Shown piece after piece: positions 256-61,960 of a stretch of 64,000 nucleotides of DNA. The notes beneath the pieces were generated by a model. That model was not told the origin of the DNA and did no database searches. It saw nothing but the letters and a program-made list of their open reading frames with translations. Made by a program: the position numbers and the translations under genes. The stretch comes from an uncultured Alphaproteobacteria bacterium (GTDB taxonomy: Bacteria > Pseudomonadota > Alphaproteobacteria > SP197). The DNA is taken from contig CALIUG010000081.1 of assembly GCA_938048755.1 (NCBI GenBank), positions 271 to 64,270 of the forward strand. The letters run 5' to 3'. Every line of letters begins with the position of its first letter. The first letter of the stretch is position 1.

Positions 256-771
256 TCAATCGGTACGGCCGTGGAACCCGATCAGGCAAACTTCAAAGAA
301 GGGGCCAGAGTCATCGTCGTACATTGTATTTCGTACCTTCACCAAGGTGCCGTCGGCACCTTTGCTGAACAGATAATCCATGGAATTGGGGGCATCTCCC
401 TGCGTAATACCCTCCGTTTGGGGAACACCATATTCAGCGATCAGATCATCAAGTGCGCCATCGCAAGCTGATGTTGCCCCATCGCCCCAAAGCAAATTGT
501 ACTGAAAAACGACCACCAAGCCTCCGTCATCAAAGAAGTAGTGTGTGGAGGTACCGGGTTCATCATGTTTCCTGACTTCACTCAGGACTACAGCCCACGC
601 TTCACCACGGATTTCACCCGACGCCAGCAATGGGTTGGTCTCCAGCACCACTGGCGTTACCGCTCTGACTTCCTCAGGCGTCATGCCCCATTCGGTGTTC
701 TCCCAACCCGCTTCTGCACCAGAAGCGAGCAGAGTGGCAAAGAGGGCTAGGACACAGCACAAGCGGTGCAT
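256..771 (-). CDS. Hypothetical secreted protein (paralog of the next gene)
   Basis: ORF 256..813 trimmed to the Met that begins a signal peptide (MHRLCCVLALFATLLASGAEA). The mature N-terminus AGWENTEWGMTPEEV is shared with the adjacent gene. Confidence 0.4.
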   Translation of the reverse strand: MHRLCCVLALFATLLASGAEAGWENTEWGMTPEEVRAVTPVVLETNPLLASGEIRGEAWAVVLSEVRKHDEPGTSTHYFFDDGGLVVVFQYNLLWGDGATSACDGALDDLIAEYGVPQTEGITQGDAPNSMDYLFSKGADGTLVKVRNTMYDDDSGPFFEVCLIGFHGRTD

Positions 772-773
772 TT

Positions 774-1478
774 CTATTCCTTGTCTTCCCAAGCGACGAG
801 ATGCACGACACATCGGTCTTCGACGCCAAATTGCTCAACATCACAATCCATGGGACCCCCGTCGGAGTACATCAGATCGACCAGCCGTTCTGAATGCTCG
901 CCACAATCCTGGCTATCCATCCGCTCCGTAGCGCAGGCTCCAAGTGCCTGGATCGCCGTCTCGAGCTCGGCAGACCTTTGCCAGTCCCGAAGGCAGTCGG
1001 TCTGACCTACGATAGCCAGGCTGCAATTCTCATAAGTCACCCGGCTCTGCGTCTGGGGATGTTGCCAGGTTTCAGCCAGCCTGCAGTGTTCCCGAGGATA
1101 CTGCCCGAAGATGGTGTGGCGTGCCTCTGGCTCTCCCAGGCGATCCTGCCATTGGACAAACAGGATGTCGCAGGCCTGCTGACCATCCCGAGAGGGCATC
1201 AGCGCAACTTCCGTCAGGCGGTCCTGCTCCAGCCTGAAGAGCACAAGCACGTCATGGCCTGATAGGGCGTCGTTCATCACGAGAGAGGGTTCAAAGAAAA
1301 GCTCGATGAAGCCGCTGAATTCTGCCCAATCAGCTTCCCGGGGTTCTCTGGCATCACCACCCGTTGCCGCCATCACCTCTTCACGCGTCATGCCCCAGTC
1401 GGTGTTCTCCCAGCCGGCATACGCGGGGTTTTGGACGACCAGCAGGAGAAGAGCGGCGGTGAAGAACAGGGAGCGCAT
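774..1478 (-). CDS. Hypothetical secreted Cys-rich protein (paralog)
   Basis: ORF 774..1529 trimmed to Met18 (MRSLFFTAALLLLVVQNPAYA signal peptide), followed by AGWENTDWGMTREEV. Many Cys in the C-terminal half. Confidence 0.4.
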   Translation of the reverse strand: MRSLFFTAALLLLVVQNPAYAGWENTDWGMTREEVMAATGGDAREPREADWAEFSGFIELFFEPSLVMNDALSGHDVLVLFRLEQDRLTEVALMPSRDGQQACDILFVQWQDRLGEPEARHTIFGQYPREHCRLAETWQHPQTQSRVTYENCSLAIVGQTDCLRDWQRSAELETAIQALGACATERMDSQDCGEHSERLVDLMYSDGGPMDCDVEQFGVEDRCVVHLVAWEDKE

Positions 1479-1530
1479 GACACAACCGTGCCGTGCCGAC
1501 GGACAGGGGTCAAACACCGCATCCCACAAA

Positions 1531-3107: not shown

Positions 3108-3536
3108 CTACTTGCCGGGTGCCAGCGCGGGGTCATTCTTCAGAATGCACCACAGGCCCACCGCTGCGGGCCAGGCGGCCCAGAGACCCCAGGGCACGAA
3201 AAGCGTCACCGTGCCCGAGAGGCTGGCCGCCGTGAAACTCATGTCGTTGCCCGCGATATCGCCGATCAGGTGCACGAAGACGACCATCAACAGCGCCATG
3301 ACAAGCGCGACCAGGAACGATGCCGCCAGGAAGGCCCGCAGCATGGAAAGCCCGCTCTTTTCCAGAAACGCCAGGCCCAGCTTCAGCGTGAATATTGCCC
3401 CCATGAACGGCAGCAGCAGCGGAAAGGCAAACATCAGGGACTGGATCGAATAGGGCCAGACCATCATGTAGGCGATGAGCGAGAAGAGGCCGCCCAGCAT
3501 AACAGCCTTGGACCAGAGTTGCGGGGTTGGTTTCAT
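3108..3536 (-). CDS. Hypothetical integral membrane protein
   Basis: 142 aa, highly hydrophobic with multiple predicted TM helices. Its start overlaps the hemJ stop (ATGA), suggesting co-transcription with the heme genes. Confidence 0.5.
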   Translation of the reverse strand: MKPTPQLWSKAVMLGGLFSLIAYMMVWPYSIQSLMFAFPLLLPFMGAIFTLKLGLAFLEKSGLSMLRAFLAASFLVALVMALLMVVFVHLIGDIAGNDMSFTAASLSGTVTLFVPWGLWAAWPAAVGLWCILKNDPALAPGK

Positions 3537-3985
3537 CAGAACGGCTTTACCACGACCATGATGACGATGACGACCATCAGCACCGCGGGCACCTCGTTCA
3601 CGAACTTGTAGAAACGCGCCGATCGGGTGTTGCGGTCCTCGGCAAAGGCGCGGCGCCAGCGTGACAGCTCACCATGAAGGCCCACCATCACGATGACCGC
3701 GACCAGCTTCACATACCACCAGCCCTCGCTCCAGATGCCCATGCCGCGGTCGAAAAACAGCAGGCCACCCAGCACGAAGACCAGGATCATGGCGGGGTTG
3801 ATAATGCCGCGCAGCAGGCGCCGTTCCATCACCTTGAAGGTTTCCGACTGCACCGATCCGATTTCGGCATCGACGTGATAGGCAAAGAGCCGCGGCAGAT
3901 AGAGCATGCCCGCCATCCAGGCGATCACAGCAATGATGTGGAATGCCTTGATCCAGATATAGGCGCCGCCCAGAAACCCTTCCAT
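3536..3985 (-). CDS. hemJ: Protoporphyrinogen IX oxidase HemJ (CopD-like, UPF0093)
   Basis: About 150 aa membrane protein starting MEGFLGGAYIWIKAFHIIAVIAWMAGMLYLPRLFAYH, the HemJ signature. Sits directly downstream of hemH with a GGAGG RBS. Start trimmed to Met16 of the ORF. Confidence 0.75.
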   Translation of the reverse strand: MEGFLGGAYIWIKAFHIIAVIAWMAGMLYLPRLFAYHVDAEIGSVQSETFKVMERRLLRGIINPAMILVFVLGGLLFFDRGMGIWSEGWWYVKLVAVIVMVGLHGELSRWRRAFAEDRNTRSARFYKFVNEVPAVLMVVIVIMVVVKPF

Positions 3986-3987
3986 GG

Positions 3988-5019
3988 TCAGGCCTCCATG
4001 CAGGGACACTTGCCCCAGGCACCGGGGCACAGCCGTCGGCCGGTATCGGGTCCAAGATCAGGGGCACCCGGCTCCAGGGTGGTGCGCACAATGCCGGCAA
4101 GGCCTTCGATGAAAGCCTCTTCGACACCCAGTGCCGGAACCCGCAGATAGGGCGCACAGCCGTTCTTGCCGGCCATTTCGGCATATTCGATATCAAGCTC
4201 GACCAGGGTTTCGGAATGTTCCGAGACAAAGGCGATCGGCACCACGACAGCACCCTTGCCCTCCTTGCCCGCGCGTTTGATTTCATCATCGGTTGAGGGA
4301 CCGATCCAGGTCAGCGGCCCCACGCGTGACTGGTAACAGACCTGCCAGTCCAGATCGGGTCTGGCCAGTTTTGCGACCACCGCCGCGGCGGTCTGTTCGA
4401 TCTGCCACTGATAGGGATCGCCTGCCTTGACGATCTTTTCGGGCAGGCCGTGGGCCGAGAAGAGGACCCGAACCGGCTGATCGCCCGCCTTGTCGAGGGT
4501 ACGATCGAGCAGGGCGGCATGGGCAGCAATCAGGCCCTCATGCATGGGATAACAGCACACCGCTTTGGTCGGGGCCTTGATCCCGGCCTTTTCTGCGGCA
4601 CGGTGCCATGCCTGCATCGACGAGCCCGTCGTGGTGGTCGAGAATTGCGGATAGAGCGGCAGCAGGATCACGCGATTGGGTGCAAAGGCAGCGACCTCCA
4701 TCGCCGTGTCCTGGGCCATGGGATGCCAGTAACGCATGGAGATGAAGACCCGGGTTTCCTCATCATCCAGGGCCGCTTCCAGCTTGGCTGCCTGGGCACG
4801 GGTTTCTTCCAGCAGCGGGGACTTGCCGCCGATCAGCGCATAGATCTTGCGGGCTTCCTTCTGGCGTTTGTTGGAAATGACCGACGCCAGGAGCGGGCGC
4901 AGCGGCCAGGGCAGGCCGATGATTGCGGGATCGTTGAAGAGGTTGTTGAGAAAGGGCTGGATCGCATCAGGCGAATCGGGACCACCCAGATTGAAGAGCA
5001 CCACGGCCGTGCGCGTCAT
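3988..5019 (-). CDS. hemH: Ferrochelatase
   Basis: 343 aa; N-terminus MTRTAVVLFNLGGPDSPDAIQPFLNNLFNDPAI is classic ferrochelatase. Confidence 0.95.
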   Translation of the reverse strand: MTRTAVVLFNLGGPDSPDAIQPFLNNLFNDPAIIGLPWPLRPLLASVISNKRQKEARKIYALIGGKSPLLEETRAQAAKLEAALDDEETRVFISMRYWHPMAQDTAMEVAAFAPNRVILLPLYPQFSTTTTGSSMQAWHRAAEKAGIKAPTKAVCCYPMHEGLIAAHAALLDRTLDKAGDQPVRVLFSAHGLPEKIVKAGDPYQWQIEQTAAAVVAKLARPDLDWQVCYQSRVGPLTWIGPSTDDEIKRAGKEGKGAVVVPIAFVSEHSETLVELDIEYAEMAGKNGCAPYLRVPALGVEEAFIEGLAGIVRTTLEPGAPDLGPDTGRRLCPGAWGKCPCMEA

Positions 5020-6164
5020 GACGGCATCTCCCGATGATGACCGCGCACCGTCGCCACCAGTTCAGCGACGTGGTCGGGCGGGGTTTCCTTGATCACGCCG
5101 TGACCCAGGTTGAAGACATGGGGACCCTCGCCTGCGGCATCGAGAATGGCCCTTGCTCCCGCACGCAAGGCATCGCCACCAGCCAGCAACAGCTCGGGAT
5201 CCAGATTGCCCTGGATGGGCCCGCCACGTTGCAAATCCGCCATGGCTGGCAGCGAAACACCCTGATCAATCTGGAGAACATCAATGCCCGTCTCGGCGCG
5301 ATAACGCGCGTAGGCATCACCGGCACCGCGGGGAAACCCGATGAAGGGAATGCCCGGCCGTGCAGCATGGACCTCGGCCACGATCTGGCGCGCGGGCCCA
5401 ATGGACCAGCGATCGAAGGCAAAACCGTTCAGCAGACCTGCCCAGCTGTCGAAAAGCTGCACAGCCTGGGCACCGGCATCGATCTCGCCGATCAGCAGCG
5501 CAGCGACAGAACGCGAGAGCACATCGAGCAGACGATCCAGCAGATCGGGATCGTCACGCATCAGGTCCCGTGTCCGGGGAAAGTCTCCGCCACCGCGCCC
5601 GTCGATCATGTAGGCGGCAAGGGTGAAGGGCGCACCGGCAAATCCGATCAGCGCGGTGTCGGGATCAAGCGCAGCACGCACCCTGCCAAGCGTATCCATC
5701 AACGGCTGGTTGCCTGGAACCACGCATTCGGGATCAAGCGATGCAACGTCCCCGGCGCCCTCAAGCGGATCGAGGAGCGGACCTTCGCCCTCGGCAAAGC
5801 GCAGATTGCGGCCCATGGCATCGGGGATGATCAGGATATCGGAGAACACGATGGCAGCATCAAACGCAAAGCGCCGGATCGGCTGCAGGGTGATCTCGGT
5901 TGCGATCTCTGGCGTGTTGGCACAGGTCAGGAAGTCGCCGGCCTCCTCACGCAGGGCACGGTATTCCGGCAGGTACCGGCCGGCCTGGCGCATCAGCCAG
6001 ATCGGTACGGGGTCCATGCGTTGACCGCCCAGAGCCTTGATCAGGCGTGGGGTCACGGGGGTTGGGAGAGGCGATGATGTGTTCACGAAGTGGGGACTTA
6101 CACCCTTCCCCCCTTCAATAAAAGAAGGTCTAAAAGGTTGTGGTAGTAGTGAATCCCTGTCCAT
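5016..6164 (-). CDS. hemE: Uroporphyrinogen decarboxylase
   Basis: Contains PIWLMRQAGRYLPEY and the rest of the URO-D fold. The real start is probably the internal GTG near 6086 (VNTSSPLPTPVTPRLIKAL...), judged by alignment to the E. coli HemE N-terminus. Confidence 0.9.
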   Translation of the reverse strand: MDRDSLLPQPFRPSFIEGGKGVSPHFVNTSSPLPTPVTPRLIKALGGQRMDPVPIWLMRQAGRYLPEYRALREEAGDFLTCANTPEIATEITLQPIRRFAFDAAIVFSDILIIPDAMGRNLRFAEGEGPLLDPLEGAGDVASLDPECVVPGNQPLMDTLGRVRAALDPDTALIGFAGAPFTLAAYMIDGRGGGDFPRTRDLMRDDPDLLDRLLDVLSRSVAALLIGEIDAGAQAVQLFDSWAGLLNGFAFDRWSIGPARQIVAEVHAARPGIPFIGFPRGAGDAYARYRAETGIDVLQIDQGVSLPAMADLQRGGPIQGNLDPELLLAGGDALRAGARAILDAAGEGPHVFNLGHGVIKETPPDHVAELVATVRGHHREMPS

Positions 6165-6477
6165 GTCTTGGATAGCTGTTTGTGGCGTGAGTCACCGACA
6201 GGGTTGTGGACCCTGAGGAAGGCGCTGACATAGTGGTGTGCGGGAATCAGGGACAACACGGATTCTCCGCCGAGTCGCCTTGTGGGAAATCTTGTGGATC
6301 GCTTGTGAAAGGCCTCCATCGATTCACATCCCGTGCGTTACCTTCCACAGGGCGCGTTTGGCGATGTTCCCCATGGGGACAAAAGCGGTCTGAAACTCGC
6401 ATGATGTGGATGGGGGTTGCGCGTCTGTGCAATACCGGCGACTTATCCCCGATGATCCACGATACGCCCACAAGCCC
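6087..6477. other. oriC: Probable chromosomal replication origin (oriC) in the hemE/DUF299 intergenic region
   Basis: Six same-orientation TGTGG cores (TGTGGTAGT, TGTGGCGTG, TGTGGACCC, TGTGGGAAA, TGTGGATCG, TGTGGATGG) plus inverted TTATCCCCG and TGATCCACG resemble DnaA boxes (TTATCCACA). There is an AT-rich tract at about 6113-6138 (CAATAAAAGAAGGTCTAAAAGG). Six GANTC methylation motifs fall within 6151-6325. Position between hemE and the DUF299 gene matches the conserved alphaproteobacterial origin locus. Confidence 0.5.
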
Positions 6478-7296
6478 ATGACGGACTTTCACTTCCATCT
6501 GGTGTCGGATGCCACCGGCGAGACGATTCTTTCGGTCGCCCATGCCGCCGTGGCGCAGTTCGAGGATGTCGAGGCTGTGGAACATGTCTGGGCCCTTATA
6601 CGCTCGACGCGCCAGATGGATCGCGTGCTTGCCGCCATCGAGGCCAATCCCGGTGTGGTGATCTATACGTTGGTCGACCAGGCAAGGCGTGATCAGCTCA
6701 CCCTTGGCTGCCAGAAGCTCAGCGTTCCCTGCGTGCCTGTGCTCGATCCCGTCCTGGGCGTGCTCTCGACCTATCTTGGGCAGCCGGTGAAGGGCCTGCC
6801 CGGCGAACAGCACACCCTTGATGCCGACTACTTTGCCCGGGTCGATGCCATCCAGTTCGTCCTGCGTCATGATGACGGCCAGTCGCCCTATGATATCGAT
6901 GAAGCCGATGTCATCGTTGTGGGTGTCTCGCGTACCTCCAAGACCCCGACCTGTTTCTATCTTGCCAACCGGGGTCTGAAAGCCGCCAACGTGCCGATCG
7001 TGCCCAGCGTGCCCGTGCCTGACGAATTGCTGAGGGCCAAACGTCCGCTTGTCGTCGCCCTGATCCAGAGTGCGGATCGGCTGGTCCAGGTGCGCAAGAA
7101 CCGCATGACCATGCTGAAGCAGGAAGGCGAGAGCGATTATGTCGAACCCGCTGCCGTGCGCCGGGAACTGGCCTATGCCCGCAAACTCTATGAAGAGAAC
7201 GACTGGCCCGTCATCGATGTGACACGCCGATCCATCGAAGAAACGGCGGCCGCCATCCTGCAACTCTATCAGGAACGCTTCGGGGCCCTGCCGTGA
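6478..7296 (+). CDS. Putative pyruvate, phosphate dikinase/PEP synthetase regulatory protein (DUF299 kinase/phosphotransferase)
   Basis: Starts MTDFHFHLVSDATGETILSVAHAAVAQF; has the P-loop-like GVSRTSKTPTCFYLANRG. Start trimmed to Met25 of the ORF. Confidence 0.85.
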   Translation: MTDFHFHLVSDATGETILSVAHAAVAQFEDVEAVEHVWALIRSTRQMDRVLAAIEANPGVVIYTLVDQARRDQLTLGCQKLSVPCVPVLDPVLGVLSTYLGQPVKGLPGEQHTLDADYFARVDAIQFVLRHDDGQSPYDIDEADVIVVGVSRTSKTPTCFYLANRGLKAANVPIVPSVPVPDELLRAKRPLVVALIQSADRLVQVRKNRMTMLKQEGESDYVEPAAVRRELAYARKLYEENDWPVIDVTRRSIEETAAAILQLYQERFGALP

Positions 7297-14967: not shown

Positions 14968-14983
14968 TGTTTCACGTGAAACA
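14968..14983. other. parS: parS centromere-like site, perfect consensus TGTTTCACGTGAAACA (intergenic, just upstream of mnmE)
   Basis: Exact match to the 16-bp ParB/Spo0J-binding consensus; extended 18-bp palindrome GTGTTTCACGTGAAACAC. Preceded by a hairpin CCGGCTT-TGCG-AAGCCGG, a possible terminator for the ferredoxin gene. Confidence 0.8.
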
Positions 14984-14992
14984 CATGCCGTC

Positions 14993-16300
14993 ATGACGAT
15001 CTTTGCCCTCTCTTCCGCGCCAGGCCGCGCGGCTTTGGCCGTGATCCGGGTTTCGGGACCGGCTGCCGGGGATGCCGTGCGTGCCCTGACGGGAAGGGAC
15101 ACCCCGAGTCCGCGAACTGCAGCGCTGCGGCGCATTACGGAGCCCGAAAGTGGCGACCTGATCGACGAGGCCCTGATCCTGTGGTTCCAGGGACCTGCCA
15201 GTGAGACCGGCGAGGACATGGCGGAGTTTCAGGTCCATGGCGGGCGCGCCGTGGTGCAGGGGGTCCTGGACGCGCTTGCCCGGTTGCCGGGGCTGCGTCC
15301 TGCTGAACCCGGTGAATTCACCCGTCGCGCTGTGCTCAACAGCAAGCTTGATCTCACGGCGGCAGAAGCCGTCGCGGATCTGGTCGAGGCCGATACCAGC
15401 CGTCAGCGCGATCAGGCACTGGCCCAGATGCAGGGCGCGCTGGCGCTGGCCTATGACGGTTGGCGGGATCGTCTGGTTGCGCTGATGGCCAGGCTCGAGG
15501 CCGTGATCGACTTTTCCGATGAAGAACTGCCCGATGATGTGACGACCGGCCTGATGGATGCGGTCGGGACGCTCCGCACGGAAATCCTGGCCTATCTGGA
15601 CGATGACCGGCGCGGCGAACGTCTGCGTGAAGGCCTGCATATCGTGATCCTGGGGGCTCCCAATGTCGGGAAATCGAGCCTGTTGAACCGCCTGGCACGC
15701 CGGGAGGCAGCGATTGTCTCGTCGGAGGCCGGTACGACCCGCGATGTCGTCGAGGTGACGCTCGATCTCGCCGGTTTTGCCGTGACCCTGGCCGACACGG
15801 CGGGATTGCGCACGGATGCCGGTGCTGTGGAGCGCGAAGGCATGCGCCGTGCGCTGGATCGCGCGCGTGATGCCGATCTGAAGCTGGCGCTGGTGGATGC
15901 CGCGCGTTGGGACAAGACCTGGGCCGCCGTGAGGGATCAGGTGGATGACAGCACCATCGTTGTTGCCAACAAGTCCGACCTTGACCCTGTTTCACGTGAA
16001 ACATCGTCGCTGGCGGTTTCCTGCACCACAGGCGAAGGCCTGGACGACCTGGTAGCCCTGTTGTCACAGCGCATCCGGGAGTCCTGGGACGGCGCGCTTG
16101 CCGGACCCACGCGGGAGCGGCACAGGGCCGGACTGGAACAGGCTGCGGCCGCACTGGAACGCGCTCAACATGGGGAAGAGGCGGCCCTGGTTGCCGAGGA
16201 TCTGCGTCTGGCCGCGACGGCGCTAGGCCGGATCACGGGCAGGGTTGATGTCGAGGACCTGCTGGATGTGATCTTTTCGGAGTTCTGCATCGGAAAATAG
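14993..16300 (+). CDS. mnmE: tRNA modification GTPase MnmE
   Basis: 435 aa with G-domain motifs GAPNVGKSSLLN and DTAG, and C-terminal CIGK. Confidence 0.95.
   Translation: MTIFALSSAPGRAALAVIRVSGPAAGDAVRALTGRDTPSPRTAALRRITEPESGDLIDEALILWFQGPASETGEDMAEFQVHGGRAVVQGVLDALARLPGLRPAEPGEFTRRAVLNSKLDLTAAEAVADLVEADTSRQRDQALAQMQGALALAYDGWRDRLVALMARLEAVIDFSDEELPDDVTTGLMDAVGTLRTEILAYLDDDRRGERLREGLHIVILGAPNVGKSSLLNRLARREAAIVSSEAGTTRDVVEVTLDLAGFAVTLADTAGLRTDAGAVEREGMRRALDRARDADLKLALVDAARWDKTWAAVRDQVDDSTIVVANKSDLDPVSRETSSLAVSCTTGEGLDDLVALLSQRIRESWDGALAGPTRERHRAGLEQAAAALERAQHGEEAALVAEDLRLAATALGRITGRVDVEDLLDVIFSEFCIGK
15988..16003. other. parS: parS site inside the mnmE coding sequence (TGTTTCACGTGAAACA)
   Basis: Perfect 16-bp consensus in frame, encoding VSRET. 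Confidence 0.75.
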
Positions 16301-16306
16301 ACCGGG

Positions 16307-16323
16307 GTGTTTCACGTGAAACA
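16307..16323. other. parS: parS site immediately downstream of the mnmE stop (TGTTTCACGTGAAACA)
   Basis: Perfect 16-bp consensus about 7 nt after the stop, in the mnmE-mnmG intergenic region. Confidence 0.8.
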
Positions 16324-18401: not shown

Positions 18402-19033
18402 GCAACCAGACCGAGGTTCTAAACGCCGAGACGGCCTGTGAACGGCTGGGTGTTTCACGTGAAACACGCGAGAAGCTGGAGGCCTATGTCGCCATTCTGC
18501 TGGAATGGCAGGGCCGCATGAACCTGATTGGGCCCAGCACGATCGACGATATCTGGAACCGTCACATCGTGGATTGCGCGCAACTGGCCCGTCTGGTGCC
18601 TCCTGGATGCCGGCGGCTGGTCGATCTTGGCAGTGGTGCGGGGCTACCGGGCCTTGTCTTTGCCATTCTGGGCGTGCCGGGCGTTGAACTGGTCGAGAGC
18701 GATCAGAAGAAGGCGGCTTTCCTTCATGCCGCCGCCGGCGCGGCGGGCGTCAGGCCGTTGATTCACACCTGCCGGGTCGAGGCGATGCCTCCCGAGCCCG
18801 CCGACGTGGTGACCGCCAGGGCGGTTGCACCCCTCGAACGGCTCGCTCCCATGGTCGCGCGTTTCATGACCGAGGGAAGCGTCGCAATTCTGCCCAAAGG
18901 CAGTTCGGTGGATGATGAGTTGAAAGCCGTAGCGCGTCAATGGCACCTGTGGTACAGTCGTCACACAAGTATGACAGACCCTCGTGGCTGTCTCCTCGTG
19001 ATCGACAGGTTGTACCATGACCCCCATCTCTGA
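18398..19033 (+). CDS. rsmG: 16S rRNA (guanine527-N7)-methyltransferase RsmG (GidB)
   Basis: 211 aa; SAM-binding [12 protein letters not shown]; GTG start overlapping the mnmG stop. Confidence 0.9.
18451..18466. other. parS: parS site inside the rsmG coding sequence (TGTTTCACGTGAAACA)
   Basis: Perfect consensus; the 18-bp palindrome GTGTTTCACGTGAAACAC encodes VSRET in frame. Confidence 0.75.
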
Positions 19034-19889
19034 CCCCACATATGCCAACCCCTTGTGTGATACAGATCGTCTGACACAAGAACTTGGGTATGACAATTCC
19101 CGAAAAATCATCGCGGTGGCGAACCAGAAAGGTGGCGTTGGTAAGACAACGACGACCATCAATCTGGCGACGGCGCTGGCTGCTGTTGGTCGGAAAATCC
19201 TGATCATCGACAGCGACTCCCAGGGCAATGCCAGCACCGGACTTGGTATTGCACCGTCAGACAGGCGTCAGACAACCTATGATCTTCTGACCCGGGGCGC
19301 TTCGGCGGTGGTGCCGATGGCAACCTCCATTCCCGGCCTCTCGATCATCCCTGCAACGGTCGACCTCTCGGGCGCCGAGATCGAACTGGTCGATATCCCC
19401 GACCGCCATGCCCTGCTCAAGACCGCGCTTGATGAACTCGCGGGTGACTATGATCTCGTCCTGATCGACTGTCCACCCGCCCTGGGCCTGCTGACCCTCA
19501 ACGCCCTGGTCGCTGCCGATGAGGTGCTGGTGCCCCTGCAGTGCGAGTTTTTCGCACTCGAGGGCCTCTCCATGTTGCTCAACACGGTCGAGCGGGTTTG
19601 CCAGGCCTACAATCCCGATCTCACGGTCTCGGGTATTGTTCTGACCATGTACGACAAGCGGAACCGTCTCTCGCGCGAGGTGGTCGATGACGTGCGTCGG
19701 GTCATGGGCGACAAGGTTTACCAGACCGTGATCCCGCGCAATGTCCGTGTCTCGGAGGCGCCCTCCTACGGTAAGCCTGTGATGTTACACGCTTTTCACA
19801 GCTCAGGTGCGCAGGCCTATGTCCATTTGGCCGGTGAAATGCTGCGCCGTGAAGCCGCCCAGCGCCATGTTCTGCAGGGAGCGGCCTGA
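19017..19889 (+). CDS. parA: Chromosome partitioning ATPase ParA
   Basis: Deviant Walker A NQKGGVGKTTT; ParA/Soj family. Confidence 0.9.
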   Translation: MTPISDPTYANPLCDTDRLTQELGYDNSRKIIAVANQKGGVGKTTTTINLATALAAVGRKILIIDSDSQGNASTGLGIAPSDRRQTTYDLLTRGASAVVPMATSIPGLSIIPATVDLSGAEIELVDIPDRHALLKTALDELAGDYDLVLIDCPPALGLLTLNALVAADEVLVPLQCEFFALEGLSMLLNTVERVCQAYNPDLTVSGIVLTMYDKRNRLSREVVDDVRRVMGDKVYQTVIPRNVRVSEAPSYGKPVMLHAFHSSGAQAYVHLAGEMLRREAAQRHVLQGAA

Positions 19890-20791
19890 TGAGTGAATCA
19901 AGAGGTCTGGGCCGTGGTCTTTCCGCCCTGATGGGCGAGCCGGTTGCCGCGAAAGGTGCACAAGTGCCCGAGTCGGGCGAGGGGCTGCGCCAGATAGCCA
20001 TCGGCAATCTGCGTCCTGGCAAGTATCAGCCGCGAACACACTTCAACGAGGATGAGCTTGAAAGCCTCTCGCAGTCGCTCCAGCACAGCGGCATGATGCA
20101 GCCCATCGTCGTGCGCCCGCTCAGGGGCGAAGACGGTGTCTTCGAGATTGTGGCCGGTGAACGTCGTTGGCGTGCCGCGCAGAAGGCGCGCATGCATGAC
20201 GTCCCGGTCATCGTGCGCGACCTCACCGATCGGGAAGTTCTTGAGCTCGGCCTGATCGAGAATCTGCAACGGGAAGACCTCGGCCCCCTGGAAGAGGCGG
20301 CCGGGTTTGAGCGTCTTGCCAACGAGTTTCAGCTTAACCAGCGCCAGATCGGTGTCGTGGTTGGCAAGAGCCGTTCCTACATTGCCAACATGATTCGCCT
20401 GCTGCAGTTGCCACCGGCTCTGCGCACGATGCTCGACACTGGCGCGCTGACCGCTGGACATGGGCGCGCGCTGCTGATGGCCGACGATCCCGAAGCCCTG
20501 GCCCAGCGCGTCGTCCGCGATGGTCTCTCCGTGCGTGAAACCGAAGCACTGGTGCAGGCCGGCGATACCAGCACGGCCGATAAAAAGCGACGCGACAAAA
20601 CCGGCGAAACCATCAGCGCCGATTTGCGCGACCTTCAGAACCGACTGAGCGAACAGACCGGTCTGAAGGTCGAGATCAAATCGAAGGGTGAGGCCGGTCA
20701 ACTGGTCCTGAGCTACGCCAGCTTGGAACAGCTCGACGACATGATCGCCCGACTGGAATCACCGCCCCGGCCACGGTTGGTTCAGAACTGA
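19889..20791 (+). CDS. parB: Chromosome partitioning protein ParB
   Basis: ParB N-terminal box (GERRWRAA) and an HTH; directly follows parA. Confidence 0.9.
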   Translation: MSESRGLGRGLSALMGEPVAAKGAQVPESGEGLRQIAIGNLRPGKYQPRTHFNEDELESLSQSLQHSGMMQPIVVRPLRGEDGVFEIVAGERRWRAAQKARMHDVPVIVRDLTDREVLELGLIENLQREDLGPLEEAAGFERLANEFQLNQRQIGVVVGKSRSYIANMIRLLQLPPALRTMLDTGALTAGHGRALLMADDPEALAQRVVRDGLSVRETEALVQAGDTSTADKKRRDKTGETISADLRDLQNRLSEQTGLKVEIKSKGEAGQLVLSYASLEQLDDMIARLESPPRPRLVQN

Positions 20792-21605: not shown

Positions 21606-21985
21606 TGCGGGGCCTGCCGTGCCTCATTCCTGATCACTTCAATCCGATTGCCAAAGGGATCATCGACATAGATGCGTTCCTGGCCGAAGGGGTCGATGTC
21701 ATCAGTCACGGTCAAACCAAGGTCAGACAAGCGTTTCCTCAGTGCGTCGAGATCATCCAGGATCAGGCCCGGATGTGCCTTTCTTGCAGCCCGGAAATCA
21801 TGATCAATCCCCAAGTGTAATCCGACTCCATCGCTGAGCAAAAACCAGAGTCCGCCGCGTGTTGCGAGTGCAGCAGGTTTCGCAATTTTCTTCAGACCAA
21901 GCGCATCTTTATAGAAGGCGCGGGCTTGCGCTTCCGAATCTGGCGGCATCGCGATCTGAAGATGGTCCAGGCGCATGTCTGTCAA
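21602..21985 (-). CDS. VOC-family (glyoxalase/bleomycin-resistance/dioxygenase) protein
   Basis: 127 aa with a beta-alpha-beta-beta-beta module signature (HLQIAMPPDSEAQARAFYKDALGL ... GNRIEV). Confidence 0.7.
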   Translation of the reverse strand: MTDMRLDHLQIAMPPDSEAQARAFYKDALGLKKIAKPAALATRGGLWFLLSDGVGLHLGIDHDFRAARKAHPGLILDDLDALRKRLSDLGLTVTDDIDPFGQERIYVDDPFGNRIEVIRNEARQAPQ

Positions 21986-23010
21986 CGGCGCCCTGCCGCA
22001 TGGGCCGCGCGGGCAAGATCAAACAGGGCGCGCCGGCAGATCGTGTTGGCAGGCATGCCCGTTGTCTTGCATTGGATCTCCGCCTCGGTCAGATGACCCA
22101 GGGCGCGGATTGCGCGATCTGCGTTCCAGCGTCGTGACCCGGCTTTCAGGGCATCGATCGCCCGGAAGTGAAAGACCTTCGCACCCCTGATCGCGGCATC
22201 TTCAGGCGTGCCGCGTTCGCGCAATGCCAGGAACAACTGCAGTTGGGTCATGTGTCGGCGCACCGCACCCAGGATGCTGACCGGCTGTTCGCGGTCCGCC
22301 AGAGCGCGCTCCAGGCTGCGGTCGAGATCATCAAGCCGACCCGACGAAACCGCCTGGGCAATACGGTCCAGGGAGAGGAACGAACTGTCGGCCACCACGG
22401 CCTCGACATCCTCTACCGATACCGTCGCACCTTCACCGGCATAGAGCGCCAGCTTGGCAATCTCGTTGCGGGTCTGTCGCCGGTCACCGCCCAGATAGGC
22501 GACCAGAAGCGCCTTGGCATCGCGATCAATTCGGACGCCATGTTCGCCCAGAGTCGCATCAACGATGCCGGAGAGATCTCGACCTTCGTCCCGGTAGCAG
22601 GCGATGGCCGCGCCTCCTCCTGACTTTTCCAGAAGGCTCCGAAGCTTCGAGCGGCCCTGTAGTTCGCCGGCCTCGACGACCACCAGGGTGTCGCCGGTCT
22701 GGCGACCCAGCAGGTCTTCGACGGCACCGGTCAGTTTGTCGCCCGCACCCTTCACACGCACCACACGGCGCCCGCCGGTCAGCGACATGGCTCTGGCCTC
22801 GTCAATCAGAAGCCCGGGATCGGAGGCTGCGGCATCGCCCGAAAGCTCTGCAACACGAAACGGATCGGAAAGGTCTTCCACCGCACTGGCAGCGATAAGA
22901 TCCGCGCGTTCGCGCACCATGCCGGTGTCGGCGCCATAGACAAGGACCACACGCACGGCGGGGTCAGGCTTACGGCAGAAGGCGTCGACCTGGCGTGCTG
23001 CGATCTTCAT
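21982..23010 (-). CDS. holA: DNA polymerase III delta subunit
   Basis: 342 aa; starts MKIAARQVDAFCRKPDPAVRVVLVYGADTGMVRE. Conserved leuS-lptE-holA order. Confidence 0.85.
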   Translation of the reverse strand: MKIAARQVDAFCRKPDPAVRVVLVYGADTGMVRERADLIAASAVEDLSDPFRVAELSGDAAASDPGLLIDEARAMSLTGGRRVVRVKGAGDKLTGAVEDLLGRQTGDTLVVVEAGELQGRSKLRSLLEKSGGGAAIACYRDEGRDLSGIVDATLGEHGVRIDRDAKALLVAYLGGDRRQTRNEIAKLALYAGEGATVSVEDVEAVVADSSFLSLDRIAQAVSSGRLDDLDRSLERALADREQPVSILGAVRRHMTQLQLFLALRERGTPEDAAIRGAKVFHFRAIDALKAGSRRWNADRAIRALGHLTEAEIQCKTTGMPANTICRRALFDLARAAHAAGRR

Positions 23011-23016
23011 CGCCGA

Positions 23017-23541
23017 TCATCCCTGCCGGGCGAAATAGAACGAGAGCAGATTGGTGATGGTGCCCGAGAGGTCGTGCGCCGCATCCTCGGCGGTGGCCTG
23101 CTCGGCCACCAGCGTAGCGTATTCGGATTCGACGACATCGTAGCTCCCCGTCGCACGAGCGGTTGAACTGTAGAGCAGGGTCATGGATGTGCTGTCGTAA
23201 AGCGCAAAGTCGGCGTTCAGCGCCAGATTGAACCGGGTCACGGTATCGTTGGACTGGATCTGCAGGGCCGCCGTCGACTGATCGATTTCAACCAGCAACC
23301 GATACCGTGTCGGTTGGCGGCCCTGGCCGGCCGTAAAACGATCGATCAGCTCGTTCTTGAGAATCTGGCCGATGCGCCGTTCCGTGCCTTCGCCGATTTC
23401 GTTGATCTCGATCGCGGCCAACTCAGGCGAAACGGCGCCGCCCGATGCCTGCTGGCCGTAAAGAGGCTGAAAACCGCAGCCGGAAAGCAGGGCAAATCCC
23501 GACAGGCCGCCCAGGTGAAGCATGGCGCGGCGCGTGATCAT
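23017..23541 (-). CDS. lptE: LPS-assembly lipoprotein LptE
   Basis: 174 aa with a lipobox (LLSGCG); sits between leuS and holA as usual. Confidence 0.75.
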   Translation of the reverse strand: MITRRAMLHLGGLSGFALLSGCGFQPLYGQQASGGAVSPELAAIEINEIGEGTERRIGQILKNELIDRFTAGQGRQPTRYRLLVEIDQSTAALQIQSNDTVTRFNLALNADFALYDSTSMTLLYSSTARATGSYDVVESEYATLVAEQATAEDAAHDLSGTITNLLSFYFARQG

Positions 23542-23582
23542 GATGGGTCGCAGGCGAAGTTCATGACCAGGAGTCTACACCA

Positions 23583-26153
23583 TCAGCCAACAACGATGTT
23601 GACGATCTTGTTGGGCACCACGATGACCTTGCGTACCGTGAGACCCGCCATGGCGCGCTGCACATTGTCGTCTGCCATGGCCGCAGCCTCGATGGCGTCC
23701 CTGTCACCGTCGCGCGGCAGTTCAAGCTTGGCGCGCATCTTTCCGTTGACCTGCACCGCGATCGTCACGCTGTCTTCGACGATCAGGGATGCATCTGCAA
23801 CCGGCCAGGCTGCATCGGCCAGCAGGCCCTCATGCCCCAGAGCCTTCCACATCTCTTCGGCCAGATGGGGCATCATGGGTCCGCTCAGGACGATCAGCGT
23901 TTCCAGCGCCTCGCGATGTGCCCAGCCGTCGCCGGCATCGTCTGCCTTGAAGTCTCCGATGGCGTTGGCGAGTTCGTGAATGCGGGCAACCGAGCGGTTG
24001 AAGTGAAAGGCTTCGATGTCGCCGGTTACGCCGTCGATGGCCTTGTGCACGATCTGGCGCAGCCCTGTCGCAGTCGCCCCGAACGATCCCGGCTTGTCTG
24101 ATCCCGGCGCGGGCAGTGACGCAACCGCATCGCCGACCAGACGGGCGATGCGCTGGACAAAGCGATGGGCACCGGCGATGCCGCCATCGGTCCATTCCAG
24201 ATCGCGGTCGGGCGGCGAATCCGAAAGCATGAACCAGCGCGCGGTATCGGCACCGAAATCGGCAATAATGCGTTCGGGATCGACAACGTTGCGTTTGGAC
24301 TTCGACATCTTCTCGGAACGGCCGACCGTCACCGGTGCCGAGTCCTCCAGGCGCACGACCGCGCCGCCGTCGGCCCGATCGACCTCACCGGGCTCGAGAT
24401 AGCTGCCGTCGGGGCCCTGGTAGGTTTCATGGGTCACCATGCCCTGCGTAAAGAGGCCCTCGAACGGCTCGTCAAAGTCGAGATAGCCGCAGCGACGCAG
24501 GGCACGCGTGAAGAAGCGTGAATAGAGAAGATGCAGCACGGCGTGCTCGACACCACCGATGTACTGATCCACCGGCATCCAGTAGGTCACGGCTTCCTTG
24601 TCCATGGGCGATTCGTCGCGCGGCGAACAGAAGCGCAGGAAGTACCAGCTGGAATCGACAAAGGTGTCGAGCGTGTCGGTATCGCGCAGGGCGTCGGCGC
24701 CGCAGGCCGGGCAGACGACGTGTTTCCAGGTCGGGTGATGGTCCAGCGGATTGCCGGCCTCACCGATCACGACATCCTCGGGCAGTGCAACGGGCAGCTG
24801 ATCATCGGGCACCTGAACAATGCCGCAGGCATCGCAGTGGATGATGGGGATCGGCGTGCCCCAGTAGCGCTGGCGCGATATGCCCCAGTCGCGCAGACGA
24901 TAGTTGATCGTGCGTTCGGCCCGGCCCATGGCTTCCAGGCGCGATGCGATCTCTTCCTTGGCGGCATCCACCGTCATGCCGTCAAGAAACTCGGAATTGG
25001 CCAGAAGACCCTCGCCCTTGAAGGCTTCGTTCCCGACCTGGAACTCGGCAACATTGGCATCGGCGGGGACCACGACCGGGGTGACGGGCAACGCGTACTT
25101 GCGTGCAAAGTCCAGGTCGCGCTGGTCATGGGCCGGGCAGCCGAAGATAGCGCCCGAGCCGTATTCCATCAGCACGAAGTTGGCGACATAGACCGGCAGT
25201 TCGCGACCGTCGAAGGGATGAATGGCCTTCAGGCCGGTGTCATGGCCGCGTTTCTCGGCCCGTTCGATGGCTTCCTCGCTGGTGCCGATTCGGCCGCATT
25301 CGGCAATGAACTCGCCCAGGGCGGGATCCGTTGCGGCCAGTGCCGTGCTAAGTGGGTGTTCGGGCGAAAGTGCCATGAAGCTCGCGCCAAAGATCGTGTC
25401 ATGGCGTGTCGTGAAGACTTCCAGCTGATCGTCGCGGTCTTTCAGGGCAAACCGCATCTTGAGGCCTTCGGAACGACCGATCCAGTTGGTCTGCATCAGA
25501 CGGACCTTGTCGGGCCAGCGGTTCAGCTCCGTCAGGGCATCGGCCAGTTCGTCGGCAAACTCCGTGATCTTGAGAACCCATTGATTCAGCTGACGTTTCT
25601 CGACTGTTGCGCCGGATCGCCAGCCCTTGCCGTCGATCACCTGCTCGTTGGCCAGCACGGTCTGGTCGACCGGATCCCAGTTGACCCAGGCTTCGCGGCG
25701 GTCAACCAGGCCGACCTTCAAGAAATCAAGGAACAGCTTCTGCTGGTGACGGTAGTATTCGGGATGGCAGGTCGCGATCTCGCGTGACCAGTCGAGAGAA
25801 AGGCCCATGGACTGCAGCTGTCCGCGCATGGCCCGGATGTTGTCATAGGTCCATTCGCGCGGATGCACGCCCTTGGCCATGGCGGCGTTCTCTGCCGGCA
25901 GGCCAAACGCGTCCCAACCCATGGGATGGAGCACGTTGAAGCCACGGGCGCGTTTGTAGCGCGCCACCAGATCGCCCATGGCGTAGTTGCGCACATGGCC
26001 CATATGAATGCGCCCGCTGGGATAGGGGAACATCTCCAGGACATAGGCCTTGGGGCGGTCATCGGGCGGCCCGGCCCGGAAGGTTCCGGCCTGTTCCCAG
26101 ACTTCGCGCCAGCGGGGTTCCGCCTCGCGGAAATTGTAACGTTCGCGTGCCAT
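23583..26153 (-). CDS. leuS: Leucyl-tRNA synthetase
   Basis: 856 aa; HMGHVRNY (HIGH) and KMSKS motifs. Confidence 0.97.
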
Positions 26154-30299: not shown

Positions 30300-30361
30300 G
30301 CGATGCTCCCGGCATGGCCCTTTGGCGTCATGGTGTGTTAAGTCAGAACGCGAAAATCACG

Positions 30362-31219
30362 ATGGTGTCGATGGGCAATCTTATCTGGCTCGCCTCCTAC
30401 CCGAAATCGGGCAACACCTGGATGCGCGCCTTTCTGACCAACCTGATGACGAATGCGGAACGGCCGGCCGGGATCAACGAACTGGGTGCGGTTGCCATAG
30501 GCGATTCCGAGCCTGGGCGCTACGAACGTCTCTCGGGCAAGGTGGCTTCAGAGCTTGATGCTGCCGCCGTTGCGGCGCTGCGCCCGAAGGTGCAGGCCCA
30601 GATTGCCGCCGAGTTGCCCTCTACCCGGTTCGTGAAGATCCACAGTGCCATGATGCAGACGGCCGGGCATCCCAGTGTCAACATGCAGGTCACCGCAGGT
30701 GCTATCTACATCGTGCGCAATCCGTTGGATGTCGCGCTCTCCTTTGCGCACCATCTGGGATCAACCGTCGATGACGTGATCGACCTGATGGCGCGCGACA
30801 ACACGGTCACCGACAGTACGCCGGTGGCCGTCTCGGAACTGATCGGAAGCTGGAGCCAGCATGTTGCAAGCTGGACTGCCAGGCCCAATCCCGGCCTTCA
30901 TGTCGTGCGTTACGAGGACATGCTGAGCGGACCGCAATCTGCCTTTGGCAAGGTCGTCAAGTTCCTGCAGCTCCAGGCCCCACGCCCGCGCATCGACAAG
31001 GCGATCCGCCATGCCTCGTTCAAGGTCCTGCGCAACCAGGAAGAACGCGATGGTTTCCGGGAACGCAGTGAACATGCTGACCACTTTTTCCGATCCGGCA
31101 AGGCCGGCGGCTGGCGTGACACTCTTTCGCCAAAGCAGGTTTCCGCCATTGTTGACCGTCACGGCGAACAAATGGCGCGGTTCGGATATCTCCCCGAGTC
31201 CCGTCAGGGAGATACCTGA
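30362..31219 (+). CDS. SULT-like PAPS-dependent sulfotransferase, array member 1 of 9
   Basis: IWLASYPKSGNTW (5'-PSB loop), FVKIHSA (catalytic His region), IYIVRNPLDVALSF (3'-PB region) and FFRSGKAGGWR. Start codon uncertain (ATG at 30362 or 30371). Confidence 0.8.
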   Translation: MVSMGNLIWLASYPKSGNTWMRAFLTNLMTNAERPAGINELGAVAIGDSEPGRYERLSGKVASELDAAAVAALRPKVQAQIAAELPSTRFVKIHSAMMQTAGHPSVNMQVTAGAIYIVRNPLDVALSFAHHLGSTVDDVIDLMARDNTVTDSTPVAVSELIGSWSQHVASWTARPNPGLHVVRYEDMLSGPQSAFGKVVKFLQLQAPRPRIDKAIRHASFKVLRNQEERDGFRERSEHADHFFRSGKAGGWRDTLSPKQVSAIVDRHGEQMARFGYLPESRQGDT

Positions 31220-31221
31220 CC

Positions 31222-32058
31222 ATGAGTCGCATCATCTGGCTGGCAAGCTTCCCCAAGTCGGGCAACACCTGGACGCGAATCTTCCTGCTCAACCTGTTCA
31301 TGAATCCGTCCAGGCCGCTATCGATCAACGAAGTCCCGGAAATGTCGCCTTCCGACGTCGCGTCGGCCTGGTACGAGATGTTCGACAAGCGGCCCCGAAG
31401 CCAATGGAGCTTGGGGGATGTGGCAAAGCTGCGCCACCAGGTGCAGGAAGAGATCGCCAGCAAGACGCCCGATTCCATCTTTGTGAAAACCCACAGTCCG
31501 CTCCTGCCCTGGCAGGGTGTGCCGGCCTTCAACATGAAGGTGACTGCCGGGGCGGTCTGCATCGTGCGCAACCCGCTTGATGTTGTCGCCTCTTATGCCA
31601 GCCACTCGGGCCTCGATTATGACGGCATCATCAAGGTGATGGCGCGCGAGGATTACACGGCTCCGGGTGGTGATGATCGCGTTCCCCACCCGATCGGAAG
31701 CTGGTCGCAGAACGTTGCAAGCTGGACCGCCCGGCCTCATCCGGCCATGCATGTCATGCGCTACGAGGACATGGTCGAGAATCCGGAGGAAACCTTTGGA
31801 AAGCTTGTTGCCTTCCTGCGGCTTCCTCCCGACCCCGACCGCCTGAAGAAGGCCATTGCATTCTCGTCCTTTGACGAGGTGCAGAAGCAGGAATCCGCCG
31901 GGGGCTTCGAGGAGGCGAGCAAGAAGGCGGATCGCTTCTTCCGTGGCGGCAAGACTGGCGGATGGCGCAAGGAACTCACGCCTGAACAGGTCCGCGCCGT
32001 CGTGTCAGTCCACCGTGAGCAGATGGCACGCTTTGGTTATGTTCCGGAAGGTTACTGA
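31222..32058 (+). CDS. SULT-like sulfotransferase, array member 2
   Basis: MSRIIWLASFPKSGNTW, VKTHSP, CIVRNPLDVVASY, FFRGGKTGGWR. Confidence 0.8.
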   Translation: MSRIIWLASFPKSGNTWTRIFLLNLFMNPSRPLSINEVPEMSPSDVASAWYEMFDKRPRSQWSLGDVAKLRHQVQEEIASKTPDSIFVKTHSPLLPWQGVPAFNMKVTAGAVCIVRNPLDVVASYASHSGLDYDGIIKVMAREDYTAPGGDDRVPHPIGSWSQNVASWTARPHPAMHVMRYEDMVENPEETFGKLVAFLRLPPDPDRLKKAIAFSSFDEVQKQESAGGFEEASKKADRFFRGGKTGGWRKELTPEQVRAVVSVHREQMARFGYVPEGY

Positions 32059-32900
32059 TGGGCAAGATCGTCTGGCTGGCCAGCTATCCCAAATCCGGCA
32101 ACACGTGGATGCGCGCGTTTCTGCACAACCTGTTCCGGAACCCGGATCGTCCGTTGCCGCTGGAACAGTTGGGCGGCGGCAATCTGACGACTGCCGAAAC
32201 GGCCATGAACTGGTACCAGGCGCTGGATCCGCGTCCTCCCGCGGAATGGTCGCAGGAAGAAATCGATGCCATGCGCCTGGAGGTCCATGAAGCCATCGCA
32301 GCGTCCGTACCCGGCAACATCTTCTGCAAGATTCATGGCGCGATCTTCGAGCTGCGTGGCCGCATGACCGTCAACCTGGCGGTCAGTGCGGGCGCCATCT
32401 ACATCGTGCGCAATCCGCTCGACGTCGTGCTGTCCTATGCCGACTTTCAGGGCATCAGTGTCGATGTCGCCATCACGGCGCTGGGTGCGCGAAACTTCGA
32501 ACTTCCCCGCGACGCCGGCAATGTGTCCGAGCCCCTGGGTAGCTGGTCCCAGAATGTCGAGAGCTGGACCGGTAAACCCAATCCTGCCCTGCATGTCGTG
32601 CGCTATGAGGACCTCATCGCCAAACCGGTGGCGACCTTTAGCGGCGTTGCCAAATTCCTGGGCATCGACGCCCCGCGTCCACGCCTGGAAAAGGCCGTGC
32701 GCCATTCCTCCTTCAAGGTCCTGCGCAACCAGGAGGACAAGACGGGCTTTTCCGAGCGGTCTCCGGCACAGGAGCGGTTCTTCCGGAGCGGCAAGTCCGG
32801 TGGCTGGCGCAAGGGTCTCACCGACGAACAGGTCGCGCGCATCGTGGAGGACCATCGTGAGCAGATGGATCGTTTCGGCTACATTCCGGAAGGCTGCTGA
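32058..32900 (+). CDS. SULT-like sulfotransferase, array member 3
   Basis: MGKIVWLASYPKSGNTW, CKIHGA, IYIVRNPLDVVLSY, FFRSGKSGGWR. Start overlaps the previous stop. Confidence 0.8.
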   Translation: MGKIVWLASYPKSGNTWMRAFLHNLFRNPDRPLPLEQLGGGNLTTAETAMNWYQALDPRPPAEWSQEEIDAMRLEVHEAIAASVPGNIFCKIHGAIFELRGRMTVNLAVSAGAIYIVRNPLDVVLSYADFQGISVDVAITALGARNFELPRDAGNVSEPLGSWSQNVESWTGKPNPALHVVRYEDLIAKPVATFSGVAKFLGIDAPRPRLEKAVRHSSFKVLRNQEDKTGFSERSPAQERFFRSGKSGGWRKGLTDEQVARIVEDHREQMDRFGYIPEGC

Positions 32901-33742: not shown

Positions 33743-33745
33743 ACG

Positions 33746-34609: not shown

Positions 34610-34612
34610 CCG

Positions 34613-35449: not shown

Positions 35450-35455
35450 GGACTT

Positions 35456-36292: not shown

Positions 36293-36296
36293 ACCC

Positions 36297-37136: not shown

Positions 37137-37148
37137 GATCCGACGGAG

Positions 37149-61902: not shown

Positions 61903-61960
61903 GATCAGGCTCGCTTGCTGGAAAGATGCGAAAATCGGGAAAGATGCATGTGCCACGCCA

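Follow-up and report, generated by a model that had tools for sequence, protein, structure and literature searches.

A probable DnaA-dependent replication origin in the hemE-DUF299 intergenic region of an uncultured marine alphaproteobacterium

Where does chromosome replication begin in an uncultured marine alphaproteobacterium whose related metagenome-assembled genomes (MAGs) are classed as Rhodospirillaceae? We addressed this question in a 64-kb stretch of DNA (contig CALIUG010000081.1; hereafter the window, whose numbering is used throughout), in which an earlier note had placed a probable replication origin (oriC) in the non-coding gap between the divergent genes hemE and DUF299. Synteny, a conserved and helically phased cluster of DnaA-box-like sites, the least stable duplex of the window and the proximity of parS and parAB all support this placement, and we put the probability that the gap is the DnaA-dependent chromosomal oriC of this bacterium at roughly 85%. 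The estimate builds on anatomy, conservation, synteny and centromere position; that the gap is active as an origin, that DnaA binds it, where it unwinds and that it is methylated are predictions from these. As an origin, the gap is a normal example of the type known from Caulobacter and its relatives. The coordinates of the features are collected in Table 1.

Genes diverge from the gap on both sides in the order rho-hemH-hemE and DUF299-maf-aroE-coaE-dnaQ, as assigned with NCBIfam and in agreement with independent gene calls. The non-coding gap described earlier measures 391 bp by the NCBIfam borders, and separate gene prediction on an ENA scaffold of 99.7% identity (L087) arrives at an identical gap, with a hemE product of 356 amino acids. 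A JGI call shortens this product to 333 amino acids, with a start 69 nt later and a gap of ~460 bp; the GTG at 6086 is the likely hemE start, with a possible alternative at 6017. A longer hemE open reading frame (ORF) from an ATG at 6164, which would span the AT-rich tract described below, was rejected because 1-nt indels break this frame in relatives and because the gene callers place the start no earlier in the gene than 6086. The G+C content of the gap is 55%, compared with 62% in its flanks. Caulobacter Cori maps at hemE/duf299 (PMC6393856), and in Caulobacter crescentus it lies, as here, between hemE and duf299 (CCNA_00001).

DnaA-box-like sites were scored over the whole window as mismatches to the 9-mer consensus TTATCCACA. 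Six 9-mers with at most two mismatches fall within the gap (6281-, 6293-, 6374-, 6405-, 6443+ and 6453+), compared with 71 in the remaining 63.6 kb, making this the densest and the sole such cluster of the window, in keeping with the DnaA-box-like repeats that the earlier note had described. At least six direct TGTGG 9-mers had also been reported, and six are indeed present on the plus strand of the gap (6139, 6181, 6205, 6281, 6293 and 6405). The 6 to 7 matching positions then credited to each were found for four of them (three at 7/9, and that at 6205 at 6/9), while those at 6139 and 6181 reach only 5/9. Scored with the Caulobacter G-box TGATCCACA and W-box TCCCCA consensus sequences (PMC4285127), the gap contains two G-boxes with at most one mismatch, at 6293(-) and 6453(+), and three exact W-boxes, at 6091, 6368 and 6374.

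Relatives were collected from a genome scan (six loci), from exact-protein look-up, which added more (all uncultured Alphaproteobacteria or "Rhodospirillaceae" MAGs), and from a metagenome scan yielding 80 further loci with DUF299 proteins 54-96% identical. Of the resulting 87 sequences, comprising 86 related loci and the window itself, 71 have hemE divergent and adjacent; most of the other 16 seem to end too near DUF299 to include hemE. A 91%-identity relative, the complete 3.75-Mb chromosome OZ242015.1, carries the locus at 2,839,081-2,859,896 (2.84-2.86 Mb).

The gap is only 48-53% identical to those of two relatives (L003 and L004), though their DUF299 proteins are 85-87% identical. Despite this divergence, several islands are invariant, namely a ACACCCTT...AATAAAAGAAGGTCTAAAAGGTTGTnGTAGTAGTG block, GGAT(A/G)G at 6170, TGTGGAT at 6293, TCCACA at 6344, CATGGGGACA at 6370 and TTATCC at 6443, the last five of which are putative DnaA-box cores. 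TGTGGAT at 6293 is unchanged in all aligned relatives, including one of 59% identity (L006), and CATGGGGACA is unchanged throughout the clade. The weak box at 6167 keeps its GGAT(A/G)G core in the clade and is the positional homologue of a TGTGGATAN box in distant relatives, and TCCACAGG, at the 6341 box, ranks among the most shared 8-mers of the 71 intergenic regions. The tandem boxes at 6443-6472 are spaced 10-11 bp apart directly upstream of the DUF299 start; TTATCC and CCCACA within them are kept in the clade, and TGATCCACG has one mismatch to the G-box. The 12-bp palindrome TCCCCATGGGGA, unchanged across the close clade, is missing from the wider family. It could consist of a pair of weak DnaA sites set back to back or be bound by a dimeric protein, and it folds no better than shuffled sequences.

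Across the 71 loci the gap has a near-constant length (median 392 bp, range 364-790). Boxes with at most one mismatch occur at 3.24/kb in the gap and 0.09/kb in the flanks (36-fold enrichment), and those with at most two mismatches at 12.5/kb and 1.25/kb (10-fold). Adjacent boxes of the same orientation lie 9-12, 18-23 or 31-32 bp apart, which is the spacing of helical phasing (~10.5 bp). In the family gaps, most boxes near hemE and in the middle read TGTGGATAA on the plus strand, and plus-orientation boxes of the TTATCCACA type crowd the bins 60-20 bp upstream of DUF299, with 56 sites across the 71 intergenic regions.

The hemE end of the gap carries a candidate DNA unwinding element (DUE). 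The 26 bp at 6114-6139 tie for the lowest G+C content among the 26-mers of the window, and the 40-bp and 60-bp segments starting at 6114 form its least stable duplex, ~4 standard deviations from the mean. This agrees closely with the AT-rich stretch (about 6113-6138) that had been singled out before as a possible unwinding element. The tract is nearly invariant in the clade, and an AT-rich tract occupies the equivalent place in most of the 71 loci. The triplet repeat beside it reads AGT GAT GAT GGT GTT when the plus strand is taken 3' to 5'. It is kept in the clade and in distant relatives, and GTAGTAGT occurs in 11 of the 71 intergenic regions; runs of the form (TNG)>=4 near hemE are found on the plus strand of 11 of the 71 and on the other strand of none, ~24 times the background.

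Most of the related loci share a common plan at this end, with an AT-rich tract, a plus-strand triplet run such as GGTAGTAGTGG, ~11-13 bp of spacer and tandem boxes TGTGGATAN and CGGGGATTR. The spacer between run and box measures 11-13 bp in 21 of 33 scorable loci, and a box with at most two mismatches lies 0-16 bp from the first trio in 33 of the 71 related gaps. The basal unwinding system of Bacillus subtilis and other bacteria pairs a DnaA-box with DnaA-trios, most commonly across 13 bp (PMC8287927), and the spacer of 11-13 bp seen in the relatives is typical of it. The window has the same order of box or boxes, spacer, triplet repeat with 3'-GAT-5' units and AT-rich region. On the minus strand this order reads 5'-CTATCCAAG...CTACTACCACAACC-TTTTAGACCTTCTTTTATTGAA-3', and its polarity equals that of the C. 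difficile element 5'-CACCTACTACTATTACTACTATGA-3', which precedes the DUE of that bacterium (PMC7561715). The window has a degenerate version of the box/trio module; that hemE-type alphaproteobacterial origins use a relaxed G-N-T trio code is a minor and rather speculative possibility.

The perfect parS sites listed in Table 1 are scattered through mnmE-mnmG-rsmG and its immediate surroundings, ahead of parAB. Three fall within coding sequence or at its edge, and two relatives (L001 and L002) carry the same sites. Four perfect copies indicate a chromosome centromere 8.5-12 kb from the gap, and parS and parAB together lie 8.5-14 kb from it. The mnmE-mnmG-rsmG-parAB block stands on the DUF299 side here, and on the hemE side in Caulobacter. 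In Cori, parS is similarly nearby, within ~10 kb (bioRxiv 10.64898/2026.09.14.751567).

These features suggest how the origin might work. DnaA would fill two sets of boxes of moderate or weak match that face in opposite directions, the first of TGTGGAT type on the plus strand (6167, 6281, 6293, 6374 and 6405) and the second the TTATCC/TGATCC array at 6443-6472. Neither set has a perfect consensus copy, and both resemble the G-box and W-box classes of Caulobacter. A DnaA oligomer on the left-facing boxes would then extend over the triplet repeat and open the AT-rich tract beside hemE for loading of the helicase. A CcrM-type enzyme would probably methylate the six GANTC sites, which would consequently be hemimethylated directly after initiation. 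CtrA would not bind the gap.

Cori resembles the gap in having only moderate and weak DnaA sites of the G-box and W-box classes (PMC4285127), an AT-rich region and a GANTC cluster (~five sites in Cori, six here). It differs in its five CtrA sites and its IHF site, on which the cell-cycle control of Cori depends. No exact TTAA-N7-TTAA box exists anywhere in the 64-kb window, as the earlier note had reported; the best match in the gap has two mismatches, and the gap has no TTAACCAT half-site. Neither strand of the gap has a match to the IHF consensus WATCAANNNNTTR with one mismatch or fewer, a search that did not include the Caulobacter-specific IHF sequence. CtrA sites have not been seen in origins outside Caulobacter, with Rickettsia as a possible exception (PMC4468827). 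CtrA control is absent at the hemE-DUF299 gap, and none of the present findings overturns current understanding.

Two further origins lend themselves to comparison. In Azospirillum baldaniorum an oriC has been predicted with DoriC/Ori-Finder between yqfL and hemE (bioRxiv 10.64898/2026.09.14.751567). By its described features this origin is like the window in having about six DnaA boxes of mixed orientation, with parAB ~12 kb and parS 10-12 kb away, distances comparable to those here; its host is likewise placed in Rhodospirillales, and the origin itself is a prediction and not experimentally mapped. From its name, we take yqfL to be a DUF299-family gene. The oriC of E. coli, whose unwinding element at one end precedes two opposed arrays in which strong and weak DnaA boxes are helically phased, shares with the window this end-placed element, the opposed phased arrays and a cluster of methyltransferase sites, and differs in its genomic context, its perfect R boxes, its IHF and Fis sites and its use of GATC with Dam and SeqA instead of GANTC (the gap has two GATC sites only). 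The Left-DOR of E. coli oriC has been described (PMC10325909).

The GANTC cluster raises a question of its own. Six sites within ~175 bp had been noted before, and their positions are confirmed as the densest cluster in the 64 kb, the only stretch of 175 bp with six (Poisson P ~6e-6 per window). Across the window GANTC is two-fold depleted (155 found, 303 expected from shuffles), and its enrichment in the gap is 4-7 times overall, with a density of 15/kb compared with 3.4/kb in other non-coding gaps (4.4-fold, P ~0.0025). Overall depletion with intergenic enrichment is the pattern reported for CcrM-bearing Alphaproteobacteria (PMC3973325), and this signature suggests that the sites are probably CcrM-methylated.

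Whether such methylation matters for replication is an even question: we give equal weight to the possibility that the gap is the origin and that its GANTC cluster has no role in replication control, being either a by-product of relaxed counter-selection or of use to hemE and DUF299 transcription alone. Caulobacter lacking ccrM has a normal DNA content, and methylation of Cori is dispensable for replication (PMC6393856; PMC3973325). Over the 71 loci the enrichment is only 3.2-fold (6.1/kb in the gap, 1.9/kb in the flanks), 11 gaps have no site at all, and individual sites turn over within the clade, where only GAGTC at 6272 is kept in position. Set against this, all eight clade sequences retain 5-7 sites though the gaps at the extremes share only the low identity given above, which, together with the 4.4-fold density, hints that the number is kept by selection. 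That this constancy, in a gap free of CtrA boxes, means that the origin senses whether it is fully methylated or hemimethylated is a doubtful proposition. If true, methylation state would either lock the origin once per cycle or trigger its transcription, much as Dam and SeqA exert control through GATC, but with GANTC. Control of this kind is not known from any alphaproteobacterial origin that depends on DnaA.

Several observations weigh against assigning the origin to this gap. Its best match to TTATCCACA is 7/9, and a search of the window gave neither a DnaA signature nor a large ORF resembling DnaA, in agreement with the earlier note. With a position 30-65 bp ahead of the hemE start, the AT-rich/triplet block could be kept as a promoter or 5' untranslated region. 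The DnaA-trio rule requires a box with at most two mismatches at 0-16 bp and at least three consecutive units with a central A (3'-NAN-5', typically GAT); the window shares the order and polarity of box(es), trios and AT-rich region with it, and departs from it and from the basal unwinding system in that the nearest box, CTTGGATAG, has three mismatches at a spacer of 14-17 bp and only two consecutive units carry a central A (GAT GAT), while GGT, GTT and AGT do not. The mean GC skew is -0.008 on the left (14.7 kb, including 8.4 kb from L087) and +0.006 on the right (57.7 kb), which is the expected sign at ~1.5 standard errors, and the cumulative minimum within these 72 kb falls near position 1,500, ~4.7 kb left of the gap, in a very weak skew. 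Within the window itself and in the 10-kb flanks of the relatives, the skew is too faint, and gene orientation confounds it. A naive caller based on ORFs and GC3, intended to separate transcriptional from replicational skew, was discarded after it picked several antisense ORFs. The KOPS-like octamer GGGNAGGG is biased 8:2 on the right, with too few copies on the left for showing a switch, and the related 7-mer GGGCAGG shows no switch, favouring the plus strand both left and right of the gap, probably because of codon usage.

Part of this evidence would suit another explanation, in which the gap does no more than drive and regulate the divergent transcription of hemE and DUF299, its box-like sites are transcriptional operators, its GANTC sites serve GcrA/CcrM-dependent transcription, and the true origin lies elsewhere, for example beside dnaA. 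Both promoters must indeed sit in the gap, the AT-rich block is directly upstream of hemE, the origin is not fixed to this place by GC skew, and GANTC is in general intergenically enriched in CcrM-bearing Alphaproteobacteria (PMC3973325). The best conserved GANTC (CGAGTCG at 6272) also fits the GcrA-preferred motif YGAKTCK (PMC4647560), but it is the only one of the six to do so, no more than expected by chance. A sigma-70 consensus scan yielded no promoter. At least nine phased box-like sites in two opposed arrays, in a gap of near-constant length (~392 bp) and with 36-fold enrichment over 71 loci, go far beyond the needs of a DnaA-regulated promoter. With the mapped origin of Caulobacter in the same gap (PMC6393856) and parS and parAB nearby, we consider a purely regulatory region quite improbable. 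An origin and a promoter may nevertheless coincide: as the scan located no promoter, the AT-rich/triplet block may double as that of hemE, which the AT-rich tract possibly overlaps, and in Caulobacter transcription from a hemE promoter is needed for replication (PMC6393856).

Least credible is that the TTGTGG repeats, 5 of whose 15 copies in the window lie in the gap on one strand, are iterons for a non-DnaA initiator or regulator in a plasmid-like or accessory replicator, since the conserved repeats extend to TGTGGAT or TGTGGGA (DnaA-box cores), the non-extending ones at 6181 and 6205 are not conserved, the copy at 6138 is part of the triplet repeat, the vicinity has no rep gene and the context is core chromosome (rho, dnaQ, mnmEG, parAB, leuS, holA and ftsK).

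As a probable DnaA-dependent origin, the gap is the likely position zero of the chromosome in this uncultured marine lineage of Alphaproteobacteria, which helps in orienting assemblies, in estimating growth rates from the peak-to-trough ratio of metagenome coverage and in the comparative study of origin design. The 71 loci provide a picture of the hemE-type origin, with constant length, opposed phased arrays and an AT-rich/triplet/box module beside hemE.

Table 1. Features of the candidate origin and its surroundings in the window.
Feature	Position	Strand	Remarks
hemE (uroporphyrinogen decarboxylase), left border gene	5016..6086	-	NCBIfam TIGR01464, 361 bits
Candidate oriC, whole hemE-DUF299 intergenic region	6087..6477	.	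391 bp
AT-rich tract TTCAATAAAAGAAGGTCTAAAAGGTT, candidate DNA unwinding element	6114..6139	.	27% G+C
Triplet repeat TTG TGG TAG TAG TGA, DnaA-trio-like	6138..6152	+	between AT-rich tract and boxes
Six GANTC (CcrM-type) sites	6151..6325	.	6151, 6189, 6244, 6261, 6272, 6321
Weak DnaA-box-like CTTGGATAG (reverse complement CTATCCAAG)	6167..6175	-	3 mismatches; box nearest the triplet repeat
DnaA-box-like TGTGGGAAA (reverse complement TTTCCCACA)	6281..6289	-	2 mismatches; kept only in closest relatives
Putative DnaA box TGTGGATCG (reverse complement CGATCCACA)	6293..6301	-	1 mismatch to G-box TGATCCACA
DnaA-box-like CCTTCCACA	6341..6349	+	3 mismatches; TCCACA core (6344) invariant
Perfect palindrome TCCCCATGGGGA	6368..6379	.	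two back-to-back W-box hexamers TCCCCA
Right-half extension of palindrome, TGGGGACAA (reverse complement TTGTCCCCA)	6374..6382	-	2 mismatches
DnaA-box-like TGTGGATGG (reverse complement CCATCCACA)	6405..6413	-	2 mismatches; kept only in closest relatives
Three tandem same-orientation boxes TTATCCCCG (6443), TGATCCACG (6453), weak ACGCCCACA (6464)	6443..6472	+	
DUF299 / PPDK-PEP synthase regulator gene, right border gene	6478..7296	+	NCBIfam NF003742, 326 bits; Pfam PF03618 on L087
Four perfect parS sites TGTTTCACGTGAAACA	14968-14983, 15988-16003, 16308-16323, 18451-18466	.	0.18 expected even with <=3 mismatches
parA-parB	19017..20791	+	NCBIfam hits; downstream of mnmE-mnmG-rsmG

The gap and its surroundings were also searched for structured RNA. 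Rfam returned no RNA family in 5500-7000, and no significant hairpin was found in the gap. A conserved inverted repeat, CCTGTC (6156) and GACAGG (6198), was rejected as a structured element, having one compensatory change only and fold z-scores of -0.9 and -1.3.

In the MAG SP197, two nearly identical copies of the hemE-gap-DUF299 locus stand at contig ends, at the end of PBNE01000002.1 (L004) and the start of PBNE01000004.1 (L005); they probably reflect assembly overlap or strain heterogeneity rather than two origins.

A heme-synthesis trio adjoins the gap at 3536-6086 (-), consisting of hemE, hemH (ferrochelatase) and a gene for a UPF0093 (PF03653) protein, which is presumably of the HemJ type. 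Beyond it come a 142-amino-acid ORF without Pfam hits and then rho. Beside rho, at 256-1529 (-), the window has a pair of small paralogous genes, also present in L087, whose products look secreted, share the motif GWENTxWGMTxEEV and have no Pfam hit; in their place two other strains, L088 (11395-11992) and L089 (1583-2180), carry a ParE toxin/helix-turn-helix antitoxin pair. This difference is strain-level variation a few kilobases from the candidate origin.

On the other side of the gap, holA and leuS are found at 21982-26153 (-) and ftsK at 59464-61977 (-), ~53 kb from the candidate origin. Finally, about nine or ten genes of similar size (226-301 amino acids) stand in tandem over 30314-38665 (+); the two that were tested belong to Sulfotransfer_1 (PF00685), and the array is an unusual run of paralogous sulfotransferases.

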